A stretch of 64,000 bases of DNA from Mosigvirus mar005p1: the sequence record OZ035759.1; one strand, written 5' to 3'. The stretch's first letter is position 1. Every line of letters starts with the position of its first letter. Positions 22,607 to 32,756 of this stretch are shown one piece after another. The translations under genes and the position numbers were made by a program. The notes under the pieces are model-generated. The model did no database searches, was not told the DNA's origin, and saw nothing but the letters and a program-made list of their open reading frames with translations.

Positions 22607-22936
22607 TTATACTCTAGGCTTTTGAGCTTGTTTGGTATTGGATTCCCATGCGGCTTTGGTAATTTTGTTAGCGGCATAACCAAAGGCATTAGATAGAACA
22701 CCTTTAGAGTTGAATACATCCAATCCAATAAGTACACCGGCTGTGTTAAATTTAGGAGCAAAGTACGCATTAGTTTTAGAAAGAGCTTTTTTCAATTCAG
22801 GGTCTTGAACCAAGCCATCAAAAACGCCTTTACTATTTACTTTATATGTTACTTTGGGATTTTTACCTTCTTCGATAGCAGCTTTCTGTTCCGCAGATAA
22901 TGTAACTTCAGTGATAAACTCCTGATATGTTTTCAT
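22607..22936 (-). CDS. internal (capsid-targeted) protein, IP-like
   Basis: N-terminal capsid targeting sequence MKTYQEFITE (T4 consensus MKTYQEFIAE). Confidence 0.65.
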   Translation of the reverse strand: MKTYQEFITEVTLSAEQKAAIEEGKNPKVTYKVNSKGVFDGLVQDPELKKALSKTNAYFAPKFNTAGVLIGLDVFNSKGVLSNAFGYAANKITKAAWESNTKQAQKPRV

Positions 22937-22961: not shown

Positions 22962-23276
22962 TTATTCTTTAGGGAAGTTTTTAGAGTATGCATCATAAAG
23001 TTTATTACCAATACGGCGGAAGACTTTAGCTGCAAAACGGTTTTCAGGGTTTTTAATCATAATTTGCATCATGTAAGTTCCTGCATCCGAAAGAGCTTCT
23101 TCATAGTACCCATTAATTTCTTTAAGAGTCCTACGTTTACCACCAGGACCATCAACAGTAATTTTCCATTTACCTGTAGAAGTGCGGCTCGGTGGCTCAA
23201 CTTGTTCAATCCAAATATAACCACCTTCAACGCGTTGGTTGGCGGATTCTGCAATAAATTCTTTATACGTTTTCAT
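22962..23276 (-). CDS. internal (capsid-targeted) protein, IP-like
   Basis: N-terminal MKTYKEFIAE; own early promoter. Confidence 0.65.
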   Translation of the reverse strand: MKTYKEFIAESANQRVEGGYIWIEQVEPPSRTSTGKWKITVDGPGGKRRTLKEINGYYEEALSDAGTYMMQIMIKNPENRFAAKVFRRIGNKLYDAYSKNFPKE

Positions 23277-23340: not shown

Positions 23341-23601
23341 TTAAGCTTTACCGCCAGAAATAATTCCGAAGTTGTTAAAATCATATCCAATATCGTCAAC
23401 ATCTACTTTAGGGCTTGCTACAACATAAGCAATTTCACTACGTTTTGCATAGGTGTTGATTTCTTTACCATCGCCACCTAAGAAAGAATACCCATTACGT
23501 TTTAATGAGCCAAAGTCTTCGGCATCACCAACGAAAGCTTTAACTTTAAATTTAGGACCTTTGGCAACTGCTTCAGCGATAAATTCTTGATACATTTTCA
23601 T
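23341..23601 (-). CDS. internal (capsid-targeted) protein, IP-like
   Basis: ATG at 23599-23601 gives MKMYQEFIAE; AAGGA SD. Confidence 0.6.
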   Translation of the reverse strand: MKMYQEFIAEAVAKGPKFKVKAFVGDAEDFGSLKRNGYSFLGGDGKEINTYAKRSEIAYVVASPKVDVDDIGYDFNNFGIISGGKA

Positions 23602-23608
23602 TTTTTCC

Positions 23609-24022
23609 TTAGTAAATTGATTTACCATAGTATTTGTACCAAGTCGGACGTTGAGCAATTTTTTCATCTAAGCGTGCTTGACTTATCGCAATAGACGCTT
23701 CAGACGGGACATAATTATTACGAAATTCGACAGGGATGTCGGAAATATCCTGGACTGACGTGTCCTTGATTTTGAAACCACGTTTCAAACATTCAGCGAT
23801 TAGCTCGATTTGTCGTAAACGTAAAAATTCGAGTTTGTCGTAAAAGAATGTTACGTGACCTGTGCCTAAGATAAATGTTGGAGAGATTTTAAAATCCTTT
23901 ACACGTTTACCGTTTTGAACATGTTTACGGACTGCACCAAATACGCGTGGTAATTCACGATACTCAGCCATAAGATGTTGGTCGGTCAGTTCAGAAACAA
24001 GTGTTAAATTGATACGAGTCAT
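23609..24022 (-). CDS. denV: endonuclease V (pyrimidine-dimer DNA glycosylase)
   Basis: 137 aa from ATG at 24020-24022 ([12 protein letters not shown]); near-identical to recalled T4 DenV. Confidence 0.9.
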
Positions 24023-24080: not shown

Positions 24081-24362
24081 CTATTTTTCTGAAGCGCCTG
24101 AAATATATTTTTCAAGACGTTGTTTCATCAGCGAGCCGTTCTTAGCGATTTCTTCCGGTTTATCGCACATACGTAACAAGGCTTCAAGCTTAGCGATATC
24201 GCTGGTACGTTCAAATTTGCGAGTATCTATCTTACTAGCAAGTTCAGAAATACGTGCTAGTAGACTTTCGGCTTCAACCAAAGCTGCACCTAGCTTAGTT
24301 GCAAATGTGTCAGTAGCTTCGTTAAGAATAGATTCTGATAAAAATTCACTATATGTTTTCAT
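24081..24362 (-). CDS. internal (capsid-targeted) protein, IP-like
   Basis: ATG at 24360-24362 gives [10 protein letters not shown]; start overlaps lysozyme stop. Confidence 0.6.
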
Positions 24363-24847
24363 ATATACGCTTTCCAAGTTCCTGTTTTAAATGTTGAGAT
24401 TACGCGTTTCGCGCGATTAGGTGTCTGACGATACCATTTAGATTGGGCGAGATTTACTGCCGCTTCATCCCAACGTTTCTGTTGAAGCATACGAAGAGAA
24501 TTAGTAAAACCGGCGACGCCTGATACACCCATTTGGAAGACCATATTGACCAATGCACATCGACGAACCGCATCTAAAGAATCATATACCGGTTTAAGTT
24601 TAGCATTACCCAAGATTCCGCGAACGGCTTTATCAACGTCTTCATTAAATAGCTTTTCAGCCTCATCAAGGGTAATTGTACCGTTGCATTTACGACCGAT
24701 CATTCTGTCAAGTTCAGCTTTAGCTACGGCTAAAGACGGGTTCTTTGTTACTAAATGGCCTATGCCAATCGTCCAAAAGCCTTCAGTGTCTTTGTATAAA
24801 GTCAGTCTAAGACCTTCGTCATTACGAAGCATTTCAAATATATTCAT
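24359..24847 (-). CDS. e: lysozyme (endolysin)
   Basis: 162 aa from MNIFEMLR; about 80% identical to T4 lysozyme (catalytic E11/D20/T26 context conserved). Confidence 0.95.
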
Positions 24848-24881: not shown

Positions 24882-25340
24882 TTATAGGAGGGTAGTGAGC
24901 ACCTTATATAATGATTTACCCATTACATATTCCCATTGAGAAGGTTTAATTAAAGCGAATGCATCAAATTCAGGAATCTGTCGTCCGTCTGGGAATGTAT
25001 GATAGGAATTACAAACACTGTTTCTGAATTGCTCGTGCTCTACAGGGATGGTATATAGGAACAGATGAATATTCTTATTATCTGAGTAATGATGTTCACC
25101 TAGGTCTTTCAGGAAGGCAGGGTCATATTGTGTAAACCCAGTTTCTTCTTCGCATTCACGAATAGCGGCTTCAATAGGAGATTCACCGGGCTCGACACGT
25201 CCTTTAGGAATATCCCACCGATGAGCTAAAGAACCTTTAGGACGAGAACCAGTTACACGCCCCATGAATAATTCTTTATCTTCGGTAAGGAAAATAATAC
25301 CGGCTGATAGTTCTTTCACTTTATTTTTCTTACTCATCAT
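24882..25340 (-). CDS. nudE: Nudix hydrolase
   Basis: Nudix box GRVEPGESPIEAAIRECEEETGF; immediately follows e as in T4. Confidence 0.8.
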   Translation of the reverse strand: MMSKKNKVKELSAGIIFLTEDKELFMGRVTGSRPKGSLAHRWDIPKGRVEPGESPIEAAIRECEEETGFTQYDPAFLKDLGEHHYSDNKNIHLFLYTIPVEHEQFRNSVCNSYHTFPDGRQIPEFDAFALIKPSQWEYVMGKSLYKVLTTLL

Positions 25341-25566
25341 CTCGGCCCCATGATTTGGCCATTAATTCGGACATAAATTCTTCAATGCGCGTTTCTTTAG
25401 ATGGACTTTCACTATTAGAGACCGCAAGTTTGTAATCTGCAATAGGACAGAACATATCAAGGTCCATATTAAGATCGTCTTTGATTTTTTCTTCTGACAC
25501 ATCTTTATCGTATGTGTACAGATAACTATCACATGATTCTGATTTAATGTAAATTGCTATACTCAT
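25330..25566 (-). CDS. hypothetical acidic protein (78 aa)
   Basis: ATG at 25564-25566 (MSIAIYIKS). Confidence 0.45.
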   Translation of the reverse strand: MSIAIYIKSESCDSYLYTYDKDVSEEKIKDDLNMDLDMFCPIADYKLAVSNSESPSKETRIEEFMSELMAKSWGRDDE

Positions 25567-26054
25567 CTCAAATTCCTGCATTCGGTAATAAAACGTTCAA
25601 CTTCATTATTCTTGGCTTTTATCTTGTCTTTATGTTCTTGTAAACTACTTTTAACAAGATTAATAATGATGCCTACAGTACCTCCACCAATAATACCACC
25701 AACAACACTTATGATAATAGATGCTAATAAGATAGCAATAATATCAACAAAACCGAAAGAACTCACCTTAGTACTGAAAAACCATACCGACGGTACAAAT
25801 ATAATCCATCCTGTTATCCATTGGCACTTATTGAAAAACTTTTCAAGCTCAGCTTGAGTTGTTCGTATTACTTCATCGATAGGTTGATATCCATTAATGT
25901 ATCTGTTCACAATAATACCTGCTGGCTGGTCGATTTTAAATTCTTGGCAAATATGTTTCACTAAGTAGGATGGACATCCTGTCCAATCCACTGAATAGTA
26001 CGAAATACCTTCATTGCCGTCGTCTATATTAGACCAATATGTTTTGTTAATCAT
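25563..26054 (-). CDS. membrane protein (163 aa), C-terminal FITECR motif family
   Basis: Two TM helices; Gly-rich GGIIGGGTVG; C-terminus ERFITECRNLR. Confidence 0.6.
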   Translation of the reverse strand: MINKTYWSNIDDGNEGISYYSVDWTGCPSYLVKHICQEFKIDQPAGIIVNRYINGYQPIDEVIRTTQAELEKFFNKCQWITGWIIFVPSVWFFSTKVSSFGFVDIIAILLASIIISVVGGIIGGGTVGIIINLVKSSLQEHKDKIKAKNNEVERFITECRNLR

Positions 26055-26740
26055 TACCAGCCTTCCATAGGGAATTCCAGATAAACTTGGGCATTGACAC
26101 GAATTTCATTGGTAATCTTTTTAACTCGGTCTGTATTACGAGATACACGTCCGAACCAACGCCATCCGTTACTAATTGCACGAGAACCAGTGTGCCATGT
26201 TTGCCAATCAAACTGAAGAAGAGTACGATCTGGAGCTTCCCATTTCTCTAGTTCACCTTTTTCAATTTTTTCGAGGACTTCTTTGTGCCACTGGCGATAG
26301 ATAAGTTCGCCATCAGGAATCTGACTGAACTCTGCAGTTCCTGTTGCAAAATGAGTAGGACACACGTCAGCGTTAACAAGACCAAGAATATGTTCAGAAT
26401 GGTAACGAGGGTTGTCATAGTCAGGTTGTCCTGCAGTAATAAAGTGTTGACCAACTGGAATATCAGGGCGTGGAACATCGTCATGGTGATATCCAGGAAT
26501 AGCAGGGTACCAGCCAGGCATCAGCATGTGGACTCGTGAATCAAATACTACATCCGAGTCTTTCCAATCGTCAGGAAGATTTTGGATAAAGCTACGAGTA
26601 ATTGGGCCGCCATTATCAAAAGCAAAATTCAAATCGCAGTTAAAGAACATAGGCTCGTTTTTAATCTGGTCGTTTTTAATCGCATGAGCAAAACCACCTA
26701 CTGCACGAGCTTGACTATTAAACACTTTAGAACTATTCAT
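26054..26740 (-). CDS. hypothetical protein (228 aa), His/Asp-rich
   Basis: ATG; GWYPAIPGYHHDDVPRP segment; no confident family. Confidence 0.6.
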   Translation of the reverse strand: MNSSKVFNSQARAVGGFAHAIKNDQIKNEPMFFNCDLNFAFDNGGPITRSFIQNLPDDWKDSDVVFDSRVHMLMPGWYPAIPGYHHDDVPRPDIPVGQHFITAGQPDYDNPRYHSEHILGLVNADVCPTHFATGTAEFSQIPDGELIYRQWHKEVLEKIEKGELEKWEAPDRTLLQFDWQTWHTGSRAISNGWRWFGRVSRNTDRVKKITNEIRVNAQVYLEFPMEGW

Positions 26741-26741
26741 A

Positions 26742-27047
26742 TTATTTTCCTCGGCATTCTTTAATGAAATTTTCTAGATTGGTAGATTCAATAGCTTTTT
26801 TACGAGCTTCTGCGTGTTCTTCTTCGGACAATTTACGTTTATAATTGACCCAGACATTATGGTCGAAACCAGACGTGGCATATAATAACAAAGCTCCAAC
26901 GAATAGCAAAAATGGTGATAAAAATATACAACCAGGAACACCATCCATACTGTAAGCCTTTTGTAATACTGCAACAGAAAGAGTTGCGTAAAAAGGTGAT
27001 GCAAGTATTGTTAAAAGACCAATTCGATTGGTTTCTGTTAATTTCAT
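26742..27047 (-). CDS. membrane protein (101 aa), C-terminal FIKECR motif family
   Basis: Two TM helices; C-terminus ENFIKECRGK. Confidence 0.55.
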   Translation of the reverse strand: MKLTETNRIGLLTILASPFYATLSVAVLQKAYSMDGVPGCIFLSPFLLFVGALLLYATSGFDHNVWVNYKRKLSEEEHAEARKKAIESTNLENFIKECRGK

Positions 27048-27068
27048 AATATTCTCCTCATGTTTTAA

Positions 27069-27105
27069 TAGGACTACTATAACATAGTCCTATAATTGTG
27101 TAAAC
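27069..27105 (-). promoter_or_regulatory. early promoter with TAGGACTA palindrome (copy 2)
   Basis: Same module upstream of the 26742-27047 gene. Confidence 0.6.
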
Positions 27106-27117
27106 AGTTTTGTGAAG

Positions 27118-28074
27118 TTATTTGAAAGGTTTTACCATATGGAAATTTTGTTTGAAACGTTTGACGTAATCATTTTTGCCGAGCTTATGATACATAGCCA
27201 CTACTTCATAATAGTTCTCGTATGCGTACTCACGGAACCAACCAGAGGTGATGCTTGTGCAGACTTTTTCTAATGCCATCATGAAACTGGCTTCAGGGTT
27301 AATTTTAAAGTCATTAGGAATCTGAGAACGTTCTAACGCTAGTACACATGATTCTTCGTATACGCCGGCCAATTTGACCATTTCTGGTAATGATTCGAAC
27401 TTCTCGCGTGAGGTCATGACTTCAGAACCATCTTTCATATAAAATGTATACGCTGGACGGTCTGTTAGTGCAATGGCTTCATGAATAGTATCATGGTCAT
27501 ATGTATAGATGTCATCTTTAAAGAACGCACTTTTAGAAGTGTCAAGAACTGGGTGAGCATAATTCAAGGTTTCTTTCTGGCGTTTCAGCATAATTTCAGT
27601 AAGTTCATCGTTCAGTGTAACACCTTTACCACGAAGATACTGAATATGGTTCATAGTCTTTAAAAAGAATGGATTATTTTTCTTGAAACGATGAGACATC
27701 TTAATTGCAAGACATATCTCGGGAGTTGCCCAGTAAAACCCGTTCAAACGGTCTTTAGTCAAATTTTTCTTGGCATATTTTAAAAGGTCATAAGAAGACG
27801 TGAAATCTTCAGGAGTGAGTTCACCAACTAATTCACGGACATTAGTGATTGCCGGAACAATATATGCTTCAAAATGAGTTTCGCGTCCATTATGGAAGCA
27901 TTTGAAAACTTGGACATCAGGGTTATCTTGGTGAACATATACACCCATCATTTGATTTTTGAATGCATTCCAAGAACATTGGTCCGCAATAAAGTCCCAA
28001 TCACTATTTTTGATAGCGCTAGAATCAATAAGACCGTGATAGTGAAGTGCACGAGAACCAATAACTAACAACAT
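27118..28074 (-). CDS. hypothetical protein (318 aa)
   Basis: ATG with GAGGAAA SD; N-terminal GSRALHYHGLIDSSAIKNSDWDF loosely resembles a nucleotidyltransferase motif. Confidence 0.6.
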   Translation of the reverse strand: MLLVIGSRALHYHGLIDSSAIKNSDWDFIADQCSWNAFKNQMMGVYVHQDNPDVQVFKCFHNGRETHFEAYIVPAITNVRELVGELTPEDFTSSYDLLKYAKKNLTKDRLNGFYWATPEICLAIKMSHRFKKNNPFFLKTMNHIQYLRGKGVTLNDELTEIMLKRQKETLNYAHPVLDTSKSAFFKDDIYTYDHDTIHEAIALTDRPAYTFYMKDGSEVMTSREKFESLPEMVKLAGVYEESCVLALERSQIPNDFKINPEASFMMALEKVCTSITSGWFREYAYENYYEVVAMYHKLGKNDYVKRFKQNFHMVKPFK

Positions 28075-28102
28075 AATATTTTCCTCGGATTAATTCATTA
28101 AC

Positions 28103-28354
28103 TTAAATTTCACGACATGCGATATTATATTCATCCCAGAGGTCATCATGTGAAGCCTCTACCAATGGAACGATTGTACCGTTTATGTCTTCATTATAAG
28201 GGCAAATTGTACAGTGCGCATCTTCGAATCGGATGCCTTTGTGTTCAGATTTTTTATAACGCATATCGAATATCTTTGCAAACTTTTCACGAGTAATGGT
28301 TTTACCAACCACTTTGGTTCCGATACTTTCGTAATAAATCATTGTGGACTCCAT
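28103..28354 (-). CDS. hypothetical protein (83 aa)
   Basis: ORF; own early promoter at 28363-28399. Confidence 0.5.
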   Translation of the reverse strand: MESTMIYYESIGTKVVGKTITREKFAKIFDMRYKKSEHKGIRFEDAHCTICPYNEDINGTIVPLVEASHDDLWDEYNIACREI

Positions 28355-28362
28355 TTGTTTTG

Positions 28363-28399
28363 ATAGGACTACTATAACATAGCCCTATCTTGTTGTAAA
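28363..28399 (-). promoter_or_regulatory. early promoter with TAGGACTA palindrome (copy 3, one mismatch)
   Basis: Same module upstream of the 28103-28354 gene. Confidence 0.6.
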
Positions 28400-28404
28400 C
28401 TGTT

Positions 28405-28602
28405 TTAGCAAGAATAACTAGATGATACCCAGCCTTGAACAGTGATACTATTGTGGGATAATGAGATCGCGTCCTGGAGATTCAGACCTGCGTTATCTTC
28501 AATCCATAATGTAACTTCTTCGCGTTCTTCTGTTGCAATTTGGAACAGGTTTTCCAGAGCAGCTACTGCCGTACGTACAGCACAATCTAATTCACGAGAC
28601 AT
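28405..28602 (-). CDS. small protein, WVSSS-x-C family paralog 1 (65 aa)
   Basis: C-terminus QGWVSSSYSC. Confidence 0.5.
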   Translation of the reverse strand: MSRELDCAVRTAVAALENLFQIATEEREEVTLWIEDNAGLNLQDAISLSHNSITVQGWVSSSYSC

Positions 28603-28611
28603 ATTGTTTCC

Positions 28612-28884
28612 TTAGCAAGTGTGAGAAGATGCGACCCAACCACCAGTTTCGAGGCTCAGGTTGTAGTCGTATTGGTAAACGTCGGCCCATTCAGCATAGC
28701 CGTTTTTTGTACAACGTTCAAGATCGGCTTTAAGATGTCCGGGTGAATGATAGGTTCCACCCATACCATAAGCTGGATACAAGTCGAATGTTGTGTTTTG
28801 TTTATCAGCAATTTCTTTGGCAGCCTCAATAGCAGCATAGATTTTTGCTACAGCTTCAGCCAGTTCGGTTTGTTCTTTAGACAT
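28612..28884 (-). CDS. small protein, WVSSS-x-C family paralog 2 (90 aa)
   Basis: C-terminus GGWVASSHTC; stop inside TAAGGAA SD of next gene. Confidence 0.55.
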   Translation of the reverse strand: MSKEQTELAEAVAKIYAAIEAAKEIADKQNTTFDLYPAYGMGGTYHSPGHLKADLERCTKNGYAEWADVYQYDYNLSLETGGWVASSHTC

Positions 28885-28893
28885 AATGATTCC

Positions 28894-29199
28894 TTAGCAC
28901 AACGCAGAAGACGAAACCCAAGCACCTTCAGTAATAACGTAACCATTACCTTCACGCTTAACATCGCCACCATTATTTTCAATTTCATCTTTCATCCACT
29001 GGGATACGATTTCACCCTTAGGATAATAAGTACGACCGCTACCATAATCACCTACAGAAAACGATACTGCATATTGGTCTGCGATCTTTGTTGCTTCTTC
29101 TTCGATACGTTCAGCTTGATTCAGAAGTTTATAAATTGCATCTGAAGCAGATTTGGCATCATTAAACTCTGGTACTTTAATTTCAATAATCTTACTCAT
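28894..29199 (-). CDS. small protein, WVSSS-x-C family paralog 3 (101 aa)
   Basis: C-terminus GAWVSSSALC; shares G(S/G)GRTYYPKG / GMGGTYHSPG region with paralog 2. Confidence 0.55.
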   Translation of the reverse strand: MSKIIEIKVPEFNDAKSASDAIYKLLNQAERIEEEATKIADQYAVSFSVGDYGSGRTYYPKGEIVSQWMKDEIENNGGDVKREGNGYVITEGAWVSSSALC

Positions 29200-29555
29200 T
29201 TTCTACATTCCTTAATAAAGTTTTCGATTGTTTCATTTTCACGTCTAGCTAGGAGTTCATTATAACTAATCATTTGAGAAGCGTAAACCTTTTTATTTTT
29301 CTTGTTATGGTTTATAAAATCATAGTAAAAATAGACTACAGTACAAAATGATGCGATGGATGCAAAGGCTTGGGTATACCGTAAGTCCTGCCATTGGTCT
29401 GTGAATCCGCCGGTATTCCCTATAAATCCTAACACAACTCCGTCAATAAGAAATCCAACTAATCCAAAGGCAAATCCCATGCCAATACCCATAATAAAAA
29501 TTAGAATGTTCTCACCAAGAGAAGGCCATACGGTTAAGAGTTGAGGCTTTTGCAT
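29196..29555 (-). CDS. membrane protein (119 aa), C-terminal FIKECR motif family
   Basis: Gly-rich TM helices; C-terminus ENFIKECRK. Confidence 0.55.
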   Translation of the reverse strand: MQKPQLLTVWPSLGENILIFIMGIGMGFAFGLVGFLIDGVVLGFIGNTGGFTDQWQDLRYTQAFASIASFCTVVYFYYDFINHNKKNKKVYASQMISYNELLARRENETIENFIKECRK

Positions 29556-29929
29556 CTTATTTCCTTAACGAATTCCATAGCTTCTTCATATTCATACTTT
29601 TTAACAGCTTCATCATACTGAGCTTGGGCTTTTGCGCACTGAACTTTCCATTCTCTTAATCGGGCTCTGTGATGACGGCCTTGGTGCCAATATCCCACCC
29701 AATTAATAGGCATTAATAAAAACGGTACAATAAGTGGTGCGACGAACATTAATGAAAATGCTGCATCAGACGATATAACTTTATTGGAATCTAAAACAGC
29801 TCCTATAATCATAAAGATTAAAAATGCTAAAGCTAAAATAGGGCCAAATAGTACTTCGTTTGGGATTAATTTACGTTTGTATTCGTATGCCCAGGGCTTA
29901 ATTGGCATGTACAGGGTTGGCTTTGACAT
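29534..29929 (-). CDS. membrane protein (131 aa)
   Basis: ATG at 29927-29929 (MSKPTLYMPIK); two TM helices; C-terminus EFVKEIRCK. Confidence 0.5.
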   Translation of the reverse strand: MSKPTLYMPIKPWAYEYKRKLIPNEVLFGPILALAFLIFMIIGAVLDSNKVISSDAAFSLMFVAPLIVPFLLMPINWVGYWHQGRHHRARLREWKVQCAKAQAQYDEAVKKYEYEEAMEFVKEIRCKSLNS

Positions 29930-30494
29930 ATTCTCTACATTCCATAATAAATTGCTCAAGGATTAAATTGTTAGTGAAATTAGGACTAACAACCATAGTT
30001 TCATAAAGCGCATCAATAGCACTTAAAGCATCAACTCTTTTAAGCAAAGGCTTGCCTTCATACATAGTTTCAGAATCGACGATTAAAGTGAAGTAGTATT
30101 TTTTATTATTGACCAGAACTTCTGTATCAATATAAAACATGTTAGACCTTAAAAGCTTGTCTCTAAAACCATAATAATCTTTAGAGCGTTCGCTGATATA
30201 TTCCCATTCAGTGTTTAAACAACAAACAGACCATGTAGGAGCAACGAAATCGGTGAATCTAATATCATGGTCTGCAACTAGTTTAGCAATAGCTCCGATA
30301 TCATGAATCATAATACCTGGGGCTAATAAAGATTTTCGGTTATTTGCATATTCAGTTGTCTCATAAGAAGACGACCAGTACCATTTACGTCCAGTTGCAA
30401 CATATCGTAATGAATCAACTAAAGACGTAGGTGGATTTACCTTATCTCGGAACTCTTCGAACATTGAGTCAATATCATTATTTTGGTTTCGCAT
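29898..30494 (-). CDS. hypothetical protein (198 aa), C-terminal FIMECR motif
   Basis: ATG at 30492-30494 with AAGGAG SD; C-terminus EQFIMECREYV overlaps next gene start. Confidence 0.55.
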   Translation of the reverse strand: MRNQNNDIDSMFEEFRDKVNPPTSLVDSLRYVATGRKWYWSSSYETTEYANNRKSLLAPGIMIHDIGAIAKLVADHDIRFTDFVAPTWSVCCLNTEWEYISERSKDYYGFRDKLLRSNMFYIDTEVLVNNKKYYFTLIVDSETMYEGKPLLKRVDALSAIDALYETMVVSPNFTNNLILEQFIMECREYVKANPVHAN

Positions 30495-30510
30495 GTTAAC
30501 TCCTTTATTA

Positions 30511-30534
30511 TCCAAAAGGAGGACCGGAGTCCTC
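30511..30534 (-). terminator. rho-independent terminator after coiled-coil gene
   Basis: Minus strand GGAGGACTCCGGTCCTCC followed by TTTTGG. Confidence 0.5.
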
Positions 30535-30543
30535 CGTATTATT

Positions 30544-31137
30544 TTATTTCAAAGAGTTAATATATTCTTGTACATCAGCAGAAGTGGTTTCGACACCGGC
30601 TGGAGTGCCATTGAACGTTTCAACACGAGTTAGAGTGTCTTCGATATCAACCTTAGTCAGTGCAGCGATTTCAATTACATCATCGGCCGTAGAGATACCA
30701 AGGGCATTGGCTGCTCGAGTTTCACGAATGTATTCAAGTTTGATTGCCAGGTTCTGACGAGCATCATCAAGTTCAACCACCTTACGAGCAATTTCAATTC
30801 GCATAGCGGCATACCCGTCAGCTTTTGTATTAAGTTGTTCGGCAGTTCGACGATACAGAAGACCAAGCTTAGCATGCATAGTAACATCTTGTCCTTCGGC
30901 CAGGAGCTTACGAATTTCACGTTCCTTAGAAGCGGCTTGCTTGTTCTTTTCATTAACAAGTTCGCGAATACGTTTTTCTTCATTAATAGATTTAACAGAA
31001 GCCGTTTTTAGTTCTTTGATTTGGGTAATCAACTTATCTGCAGCTGCGTTATACTGTTCTTCGACAGTCAGATTTTTAGCCATAGCAGTACCCAGTTTAG
31101 TGCGGATGAATTCAACAAGTTTCTTCAGTGTGTTCAT
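30544..31137 (-). CDS. coiled-coil protein (197 aa)
   Basis: ATG at 31135-31137 (MNTLKKL); predicted long alpha-helical coiled coil; hairpin terminator downstream. Confidence 0.6.
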
Positions 31138-31435: not shown

Positions 31436-31496
31436 TTTGTTTTCCTCTTGATTTGATGTGATTACTATAACATAAACTTACTTAGATGTAAATTAT

Positions 31497-31645
31497 TTCA
31501 ACGTCACCTTTAGCTGCTTTATAACCTTCAGCCCAAGATACAACAGAGTTTTTATCTGAGGATTCAAATTCAGGCATTGGACTTTCACCAATATTCACAC
31601 AGTACGTTTCTTCATTTTCATCGAACCAAATAATTAAAGTAGTCA
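31497..31645 (-). CDS. hypothetical small protein (49 aa)
   Basis: Not in ORF track (under 60 aa); ATG at 31643-31645 with GAGGAGTAAACAAA upstream; translation MTTLIIWFDENEETYCV... Confidence 0.3.
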
Positions 31646-32129: not shown

Positions 32130-32756
32130 TTACTTACGAGTTTTTGCATACTGAGCAGCGTCAGCAGCCAAACGACCTGCCTGACGAAGTTTTTCTTTAA
32201 TCGCATCGTGAAGTGGTTGAGTGTACTTCAAACCTTCGATAGTCAAATAAAGACGATAAAGGTCCGGGGTATCAAGGTTGTTGATATGTTGGCCATTACG
32301 AAGACTATTGAATTCACGAACGAGTGAAGATGTATCGGATTCAATATCACGAACAAGCGAAGATAGTTGTTTATATTTTTTTTCCAGGCTAGAAGTATCA
32401 AACTTAAGAGCAGGAGCTTTAGGAGTTGCTTTTACTTCCGGCTTAGGCTCAGGTTTTGTTATTGCTTTAGGGGTCGCAGGTTTAGGAATGGTAGGAGCAG
32501 GTTTTACTTTAGGCGAACCCGATTTAGCAGAAACACCACCACTAACAATATCTTTGAATGCTTTAGAAGCTCTGTAATATTCTTTTTGGCTGGAAGTGTC
32601 GATACCGTACATGGCTTGAACGTTTTTGAAAAACTCTGTACTAGTTTTTGTACCAGAAATAGCATCGTAAGCAGCTTGCCATTTCTCTTTTGTCATACGT
32701 ACGCCGGCTTCGGTGATTACTTCCGTTTCGGCTAAAAATTCATTAAAAGTATACAT
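32130..32756 (-). CDS. internal (capsid-targeted) protein, IPIII-like (208 aa)
   Basis: N-terminal MYTFNEFLAE resembles the capsid targeting sequence; Pro/Lys-rich middle; late TATAAATA upstream. Confidence 0.6.
   Translation of the reverse strand: MYTFNEFLAETEVITEAGVRMTKEKWQAAYDAISGTKTSTEFFKNVQAMYGIDTSSQKEYYRASKAFKDIVSGGVSAKSGSPKVKPAPTIPKPATPKAITKPEPKPEVKATPKAPALKFDTSSLEKKYKQLSSLVRDIESDTSSLVREFNSLRNGQHINNLDTPDLYRLYLTIEGLKYTQPLHDAIKEKLRQAGRLAADAAQYAKTRK

Follow-up and report, generated by a model that had tools for sequence, protein, structure and literature searches.

What does it mean when several neighboring genes end in the same short peptide, and when the codons for that peptide run into the start of the next gene? 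The question is raised by a 64,000-nt stretch of DNA from Mosigvirus mar005p1 (sequence record OZ035759.1), which we refer to in its entirety as “the window.” In the part of the window that corresponds to the e.6-to-nudE locus of T4-type phages, the products of e.5, e.3, ORF133c, and e.2 end in variants of the peptide E-x-F-I-x-E-C-R, and the product of e.4 ends in a related sequence. Over the 7 kb around these genes, identity to T4-type phages of the Mosigvirus (RB69-like) group is 97%. The initial annotation of the window described a family of membrane proteins sharing a paralogous tail, and suggested that this tail might also be a conserved translational-coupling element or a recombination junction that shuffles gene cassettes. 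Here, we argue, with high confidence from the comparison of sequences, that the tail is a selected protein motif. We give roughly an even chance to a more specific proposal, i.e., that the tail would be a docking helix shared by co-expressed early proteins, with the e.6 product as its likeliest partner.

A shared C-terminal motif within one locus

How exceptional is the motif? A strict form, E.F[IVL].EC[RK], has exactly four matches in the six-frame translation of the window, and all four lie 1–11 residues from the ends of e.2, ORF133c, e.3, and e.5. No match occurred in 200 shuffles of the window (mean 0.0), and a rough estimate from residue frequencies puts the chance expectation at ~0.007. 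Across a complete 169,098-bp Mosigvirus genome, the pattern F[IVL].[ED]C[RK] is found only at these same four gene ends. A hidden Markov model (HMM) of the tail scores the four carriers at 18–22 bits; the next best score among 371 open reading frame (ORF) ends is 7.5. The initial report of a C-terminal motif on four genes, with a variant on a fifth, is borne out by these counts.

All genes of the region lie on the minus strand. In the direction of transcription, the first carrier is the e.5 homolog (29898–30494), which encodes a soluble protein of 198 aa with 47% identity to T4 e.5 (phrog_2607). It ends in ...LILEQFIMECREYVKANPVHAN, with its motif, EQFIMECR, at 29934–29957, and the ATG of e.4 (29929) lies 10 nt from the first base of the Cys codon. 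The e.4 homolog (29534–29929), a protein with two transmembrane (TM) helices, has the variant tail EFVKEIRC (29552–29575) and ends in ...EFVKEIRCKSLNS, with Ile at the Cys position. In e.4, the downstream ATG overlaps the Cys codon: in both Mosigvirus and T4, the “RC” of e.4 is the e.3 start, ATGCAAAAG, read in another frame, and the displacement of “RC” is forced by this overlap. The e.3 homolog (29196–29555) encodes a Gly-rich TM protein ending in ...IENFIKECRK. Within its motif, ENFIKECR (29202–29225), the K-E codons (AAGGAA) are the Shine-Dalgarno (SD) sequence of the next gene, whose ATG is 8 nt from the Cys codon and forms an ATGA stop/start overlap. The 2-TM, 101-aa product of ORF133c (26742–27047), a homolog of RB69ORF133c, ends in ...LENFIKECRGK, with ENFIKECR at 26751–26774, an SD (GAGGA) in the R-G codons, and the next ATG at 16 nt. 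Lastly, the full-length e.2 homolog (25563–26054), which combines an N-terminal domain with a Gly-rich TM hairpin, ends in ...VERFITECRNLR. Its motif, ERFITECR, spans 25575–25598; the SD (AGGA) falls in the R-N codons, and the start of ORF130c, 14 nt from the Cys codon, forms an ATGA overlap with the e.2 stop codon. For e.5 and e.4, the TTG codons at 30515 and 29959 are probably not real starts, the ATG codons at 30494 and 29929, conserved in T4, being the better candidates.

How far does the motif extend among phages? A scan of IMG/VR with e.3 recovered only two loci, and a word-indexed protein search returned only near-identical relatives of e.3, e.5, and e.2; the diversity described here is therefore drawn from annotated phage genomes, with the loci of distant genera fetched using ORF132c and e.6 as anchors. 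In these genomes, a generalized tail, (hydrophobic)-x-x-[FW]-[IVL]-x-x-C-[RK], always lies within the e.6-to-nudE locus. We list 32 Cys-containing copies from 11 genera: Mosigvirus, Tequatrovirus, Dhakavirus, Gaprivervirus, Moonvirus, Kanagawavirus, Marfavirus, Jiaodavirus, Tegunavirus, Tulanevirus, and Pseudotevenvirus. The consensus is L-E-x-F-I-K-E-C-R, and the general form of the motif can be written (L/I/V/F)-(E/N)-x-(F/W)-(I/V/L)-x-x-C-(R/K). We aligned 30 copies from seven genomes (26 with Cys and four Met/Val variants); position −3 relative to the aromatic residue is hydrophobic in 24 of them. Between three and six genes per genome carry the generalized tail in Dhakavirus, Gaprivervirus, Moonvirus, Kanagawavirus, Marfavirus, Jiaodavirus, and Tegunavirus. 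In Aeromonas phage Aes012 (FVDYCR) and the Pseudotevenvirus Margaery (FIHSCK), it is found on the single gene that follows e.6, the one carrier in each of the stretches fetched. Conservation beyond chance, the absence of which had been named as a refutation, is thus found in 11 genera, at the level of amino acids.

The tails of T4 itself are recognizable throughout: e.3 ends in ...KEFVIDCRKIK, e.4 in ...KFVKESRCKSQS (FVKESRCKSQS), and e.5 in ...EKFVKECREYVKAITIPSK (the T4 tail is also given as FVKECREYVKAITIPSK). Members of the e.4 lineage have Val, Met, or Ile at the Cys position (FIKEVR, FVMEMR, FLKEMR, FVKEVR), with the rest of the motif kept. The annotated T4 e.2 (102 aa) is decayed, and its tail, NNFITECRKLK, survives behind two in-frame stop codons, directly before nudE. 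In the gap between e.2 and nudE (NC_000866; stretch L002, 5480–5660), the frame continues as ...MFIEMPWRLRRQQKIFDEKKYAQNLNNFITECRKLK after the two stops, and a TM-like segment is present in another frame. Judged by these frames, the “intergenic” 160 bp of T4 is a remnant of the C-terminal half of e.2. We found no description of a cross-family tail in searchable annotations and papers. The element is common to proteins that are unrelated to one another but encoded within a single hyperplastic locus.

The carriers belong to separate families

Are the carriers simply paralogs? When their tails are removed, an all-against-all BLASTP comparison yields separate groups, i.e., e.5, e.4, e.3, e.2, a soluble group of 92–95 aa, and ORF133c alone. 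Nothing significant connects these groups, the only matches between them having E-values above 0.005 and falling within TM regions, and each carrier in the window matches a different PHROG. On this sequence evidence, the carriers fall into at least six unrelated families. PHROG cross-matches do join all of the proteins encoded directly after e.6 into one very divergent e.5 superfamily, in which the tail is kept throughout. The e.2, e.3, e.4, and e.5 homologs of the window belong to the T4 ortholog groups of those names, with similarity over their full length, the same gene order (e.6-e.5-e.4-e.3 ... e.2-nudE-e), PHROG matches of 1e-50 to 1e-95, and 35–51% identity to the T4 copies in BLASTP and tblastn searches. 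The PHROGs of the T4 e.2–e.5 and RB69ORF133c families are 2203, 2330, 2604, 2607, and 9798, with PF26896 and PF26876 as precomputed Pfam labels. Sequence searches of Pfam and the PDB with the carriers gave no match. Searchable annotations and papers hold no described function for these families that we could find, and a search of the literature on e.3, e.5, e.6, and phage-encoded PspA returned nothing relevant.

The initial annotation counted three multi-TM carriers. Membrane proteins are indeed among the carriers, and their number is four of five in the window (e.2, ORF133c, e.3, and e.4); e.5 and the 92–95-aa group have no TM helix. The label “family of membrane proteins” is therefore misleading, since several carriers are soluble and no similarity across groups remains without the tail. 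Likewise, of the proposed “paralogous protein tail,” the shared tail stands and the paralogy of its carriers is not supported. In the membrane carriers, the tail closes a Lys/Arg-rich stretch of 20–40 residues, 7–11 of them basic, that follows the last TM helix. By the positive-inside rule, this stretch would place the tail in the cytoplasm, as are the soluble carriers.

How could unrelated proteins have come to share an ending? The e.5/e.4 and e.4/e.3 junctions are homologous over the tail plus the M-x-K-P start of the next gene, and a duplication spanning such a junction probably helped to spread the tail. It could be supposed that this is the whole explanation, with tandem duplications passing one tail to neighboring genes, where it persists without a function of its own; the tandem e.2 copies of Marfavirus would fit such a history. 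We consider inert inheritance distinctly unlikely, however, because few parts of these proteins, elsewhere 31–47% identical or unalignable, are as conserved as the tail, and because it has been kept in 11 genera through many synonymous changes. Survival of the tail through so much divergence still requires selection.

Selection on the peptide rather than the nucleotides

Does selection act on the peptide or on the bases that encode it? In the 30 aligned copies, both Cys codons (TGC 14, TGT 12) and both Phe codons (TTT 20, TTC 8) are used, as are all six Arg codons (AGA 11, CGT 6, AGG 4, CGC 3, CGA 2, CGG 1). The use of every synonymous codon at F, C, and R argues for selection on the peptide and not on the bases. 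The initial annotation had also pointed to two instances with ~20 nt of near-identical sequence, and the e.3 and e.5 tails do share 20 of 22 nt; other copies of the tail DNA are at most 77% identical. In our judgment, the e.3/e.5 identity can be explained without gene conversion, since both tails use what are probably the preferred codons of an AT-rich genome.

The overlap between the motif and the start region of the next gene is real. For 26 of the 30 copies, the offset between the Cys codon and the downstream ATG is +7 to +17 nt. Where the distance is +7 or +8 nt, the two x-x codons are always AAGGAA, GAGGAA, or AAGGAG (K-E or E-E); where it is 14–16 nt, the SD (AGGA or GAGGA) spans the Arg codon plus the codon that follows. 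The SD thus occupies different codons in different copies and shapes the free positions, while F, I, C, and R are held. The full range of offsets is +7 to +37 nt, and four to five copies have no start nearby: there is an 80-nt gap in Aes012, the motif of Margaery is 25 residues before the stop codon, and Potts1 3409 and FB 8631 keep the motif with no downstream ORF at all. At these junctions, we found no conservation of bases beyond that expected from the amino acids and codon bias, and no fixed offset to the start. Tight junctions are common in this part of the genome. By our own count of the RB69 annotation, ~19 of 33 junctions in the region (~58%) overlap or have a gap of ≤9 nt, such that any C-terminal motif would usually overlap a start region. 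The overlap is therefore mostly a by-product of gene packing. A compact genome here uses the same codons twice (dual coding), and the motif does not owe its existence to the overlap.

Might the start region nevertheless come first? The AU-rich TTTATT, the SD AAGGAA, the A-rich spacer, and the ATGA could together be optimized for initiation of the next gene, with the peptide as a by-product; in a variant of this idea, the nascent peptide would pause the ribosome and so lead to re-initiation. The closeness of the ATG in most copies is consistent with such a role, even for e.5, whose own stop codon is 11 codons later. So are the invariable SD-forming codons at +7/+8 nt and the retention of tail DNA where two genes have decayed, namely in T4 e.2 and in the e.3 deletion variants described below. 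Against these stand the free choice of Arg, Cys, and Phe codons, the shifting position of the SD, the copies that keep the motif with no start nearby, and the equal tightness of more than half of the region's junctions. We therefore regard an initiation or coupling element as unlikely, and the suggestion that the motif is a conserved translational-coupling element loses most of its support.

A tail of ~20 nt could also serve as a homology hotspot for swapping, duplicating, or deleting gene cassettes. Gene content does vary across genera: Dhakavirus has no e.4, the whole interval from e.3 to e.2 is missing from T4, and e.2 is present as a tandem pair (e.2a/e.2b) in Marfavirus. Several inter-genus indels have one boundary at a tail/start junction, and the e.3/e.5 identity would suit a hotspot. 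The second boundary of these indels, however, lacks the motif (B/e.2, ORF130c/nudE). Other tail pairs offer much less homology, and conservation across genera is limited to the amino acids. Moreover, e.5 and e.3 are each present in ~640–660 phage records, and the order e.6-e.5-e.4-e.3 is identical in the T4, RB69, and ATK47 annotations. The natural deletions that we observed break inside e.3 at microhomology and not at the motif, and the same locus contains PeSL-like repeats, which belong to a known class of shuffling elements and flank cassettes here. With no extra nucleotide conservation either, a dedicated recombination junction is very improbable.

Two deletions can be described in more detail. 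In an IMG/VR contig (L004, 9960–10090), most of e.3 has been lost, with its last 30 codons and the start of the next gene kept; phages ESh15, p000v, and LF82-35 seem to share this deletion. In protein P0003, judged by its amino-acid sequence alone, e.3 codon ~72 is apparently joined to an alternative frame of ORF130c, which would mean a loss of ~3.7 kb. The motif is the site of neither breakpoint.

PeSL cassettes consist of an early promoter (TTTACW-N17-TAYWAT) plus a stem-loop, are non-coding, and are repeated at cassette borders; they have been proposed to shuffle cassettes in T4-type phages (PMC2839356, PMC4122927). The window contains PeSL-like direct repeats of 58 nt at 27054–27111 and 28349–28406, which flank ORF135c-ORF134c, and a weaker one at 31442–31499. 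They comprise TTTACA-N17-TATAGT together with a hairpin (ATAGGACTA...TAGTCCTAT) and lie a short way upstream of where a gene starts. The tail motif has neither promoter nor hairpin and is not a PeSL cassette. The two occur in the same hyperplastic region and have been invoked for the same purpose, cassette shuffling, but PeSLs are non-coding repeats of ~58 nt, whereas the tail encodes protein and lacks conservation of its nucleotides.

A possible docking helix

What would a selected peptide do at the end of unrelated proteins? Its conserved positions (−3, 0, +1, and +4) lie on one helical face, and in an AlphaFold 2 (AF2) model of e.5 the motif is inside a helix (residues 177–192). We propose, with moderate confidence, that the tail acts as a docking helix. 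The hydrophobic face of a short helix, lying at the cytoplasmic face of the membrane, would dock on a common partner or bundle the carriers with one another, and the result would be a membrane-associated complex of the e.5, e.4, e.3, and e.2 products. The likeliest partner would be the PspA/Vipp1-like product of e.6, with the 2-TM carriers as its membrane anchors, comparable to LiaI for LiaH or PspB/C for PspA. Our confidence in any particular partner is low. The SD would be written into the positions that the protein leaves free (K-E as AAGGAA, E-E as GAGGAA, or the codons after Arg), with F, I, C, and R held by the protein.

Short C-terminal tails with a binding function are familiar from T4, in which gp43, gp33, and gp55 have clamp-binding C-terminal tails. 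Helical C-terminal recruiting motifs, such as the ESCRT-III MIM1 that pairs with MIT, resemble the tail in being short, hydrophobic-faced, and shared by unrelated proteins, and pUL71 of human cytomegalovirus is a viral mimic of the ESCRT-III MIM motif (PMC11218997). The consensus of MIM1/MIT-type motifs is unlike that of the tail, however, and no MIT-like partner is known for it.

Two other protein-level roles have to be weighed. The Cys, placed between Glu and Arg, could be a reactive thiol, i.e., a redox switch, a target of modification, or one ligand of a metal held by several tails. It is a rare residue, present in 26 of the 30 aligned copies and in all 32 listed ones; most genera have three to six Cys-bearing tails per genome, and an adjacent Arg can lower the pKa of a thiol. 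The e.4 lineage, however, keeps the motif with Val, Met, or Ile at this position, which suggests packing over catalysis or metal binding; the Aeromonas and Pseudotevenvirus stretches have a single carrier, and there is no second conserved ligand. On balance, we find a thiol or metal site rather unlikely. The other role is that of a prohead protease site or a capsid-targeting-like signal. The F-I-x-E of the tail resembles the T4 capsid targeting sequence, MKTYQEFIAE, with which it shares the core (E/N)-F-I-x-E, and it fits the Ile/Leu-x-Glu rule for cleavage by T4 gp21; internal-protein genes with (E/N)-F-(I/L)-x-E flank the locus in the window. Yet the capsid targeting sequence is N-terminal, cleaved, and found on head proteins, whereas the motif is C-terminal and most of its carriers are early membrane proteins, from which cleavage would remove only 3–13 residues. 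Beyond the closest genera, the position of the Glu holds G, L, Y, N, Q, S, H, or M instead (e.g., FINLCR, FIKGCR, FIKYCR, FVDQCR). We rejected this candidate and give it almost no credence.

e.6, a PspA/Vipp1 homolog beside the tail-bearing genes

The docking-helix proposal takes its likeliest partner from the gene directly upstream of e.5. The product of e.6 (30544–31137, minus strand) was previously a “conserved hypothetical” protein of T4-type phages; it is a divergent PspA/IM30/Vipp1 homolog, i.e., a protein belonging to the ESCRT-III superfamily. An exhaustive search found only 37 clusters of the e.6 family, all of ~200 aa. The profile of this family matches Vipp1/PspA chains in the PDB at E-values of 6e-5 to 2.5e-3, in register from residue 1 and aligned over residues 1–140. 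Five of 28 family members match the Pfam family PspA_IM30 (PF04012; best 8.9e-10); the window's own e.6, taken alone, is below the Pfam threshold. The AF2 model of e.6 has a predicted local distance difference test (pLDDT) score of 83 and contains helices at 2–22, 25–80, and 86–145, i.e., an N-terminal helix and a long hairpin, and the top 12 Foldseek matches to this model in the PDB are all Vipp1/PspA. We found no paper describing a T4-encoded PspA.

Why would e.6 be the partner of the tails? Bacterial members of the PspA family usually have small membrane proteins as partners (PspB/C, LiaI), and PspC and LiaI bind their PspA partner. At the locus described here, too, small multi-TM proteins with a predicted cytoplasmic C-terminal helix are encoded beside a PspA/Vipp1-like gene, and e.6 is directly upstream of a tail-bearing e.5-like gene in 11 of the 11 genera examined. 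By adjacency and analogy, e.6 may be considered the leading candidate partner, at low confidence. The conserved C-terminus of the e.6 family, D-(I/V/L)-x-x-Y-(L/I)-x-x-L-K, matches the tail in its spacing, to which we give little weight. The known anchors differ from the carriers in that PspB, PspC, and LiaI-LiaF-TM have no sequence relation to them and in that the tail is also found on soluble proteins; binding of the tails to e.6 would be by analogy with those systems. The tail-bearing membrane proteins do not belong by sequence to the PspB, PspC, or LiaI families. The diversity of partners of PspA-family proteins has been documented (PMC11237479), in a text from which the words “virus” and “bacteriophage” are absent.

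Several observations weigh against the docking-helix proposal or against e.6 as the partner. Confidence in the AF2 model of e.5 is low (pLDDT 60), the tails exceed shuffled sequences only weakly in helical hydrophobic moment (mean z 0.5), and the near-invariance of a rare Cys hints at some role besides packing. Between e.6 and e.5 there is a terminator-like hairpin, and e.2 and ORF133c are kilobases away from e.6. The tail HMM gives the C-terminus of e.6 no score. Lastly, e.2, ORF133c, e.3, and e.4 match no Pfam family at an E-value of 0.01 or better, and specifically not PspB, PspC, or LiaI; the link to e.6 is one of adjacency and analogy.

The hairpin between e.6 and e.5 is GC-rich and followed by a T-run (30518–30535; GGAGGACTCCGGTCCTCC TTTT), and it is annotated as a terminator in ATK47. 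No promoter is obvious for e.5 itself, so read-through probably accounts for its expression.

Other features of the locus

By comparison with the annotated ATK47, T4, and RB69 genomes, the order of transcription is e.6, e.5, e.4, e.3, three small paralogs, ORF135c, ORF134c, ORF133c, ORF132c, e.2, ORF130c, nudE, and the lysozyme gene e. The three small paralogs (28894–29199, 28612–28884, and 28405–28602) belong to phrog_899, are arranged in tandem, and end in W-V-S/A-S-S-x-x-C, with Cys as the final residue. This family has three to five copies in the Dhakavirus, Moonvirus, Kanagawavirus, Marfavirus, and Tegunavirus loci, each ending in ...SSS..C, and is absent from T4. These ends are a second C-terminal Cys motif of the locus. 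ORF135c (28103–28354) and ORF134c (27118–28074) follow, and ORF130c (25330–25566) lies downstream of e.2; all are on the minus strand. ORF132c (26054–26740, minus strand) encodes a protein of 228 aa that is very widely conserved, with 75–99% identity in T4-type phages of enterobacteria and Aeromonas and ~30% identity in phages of Mycobacterium, Gordonia, and Bacillus. One record annotates it as a 2-oxoglutarate (2OG)-Fe(II) oxygenase; our search found no Pfam match.

Outside the locus, genes at 22962–23276, 23341–23667, 24081–24377, and 32130–32756 (minus strand) start with MKTY(Q/K/S)EF(I/L)xE or MYTFNEFLAE, the capsid targeting sequence of T4 internal proteins, and there is an apparent fifth start of this kind, KMKTYQEFITE, near 22907–22918. 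Such starts imply that several genes for internal proteins lie in this phage, to either side of the locus.

Implications for T4-type phages

What would a shared tail mean for these phages? Many hundreds of sequenced genomes of T4-type phages contain the e.2–e.6 block, and we found no function described for it. A selected peptide shared by its products predicts that the carriers act together, with F, I, C, and R as the key residues. The junctions are also a clean case of dual coding: one stretch of 25 nt holds both a protein motif and a ribosome-binding site, each with its own share of the codon positions. Together with e.6 as a PspA/Vipp1 homolog, the shared peptide suggests that a model phage has genes for a membrane-maintenance system, and interest in the tails would rise considerably if they address this PspA-like protein. 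T4-type phages might even carry their own ESCRT-III/PspA-like membrane module, with e.6 as the polymerizing effector and the FIxxCR tail as the address label with which a variable set of small proteins of the inner membrane (e.2, e.3, e.4, and ORF133c) and the soluble e.5 would recruit or regulate e.6 on the cytoplasmic side, a speculative extension to which we assign a small chance. If true, the module may keep the membrane of the infected cell energized during lysis inhibition or in the face of membrane-depolarizing abortive infection.

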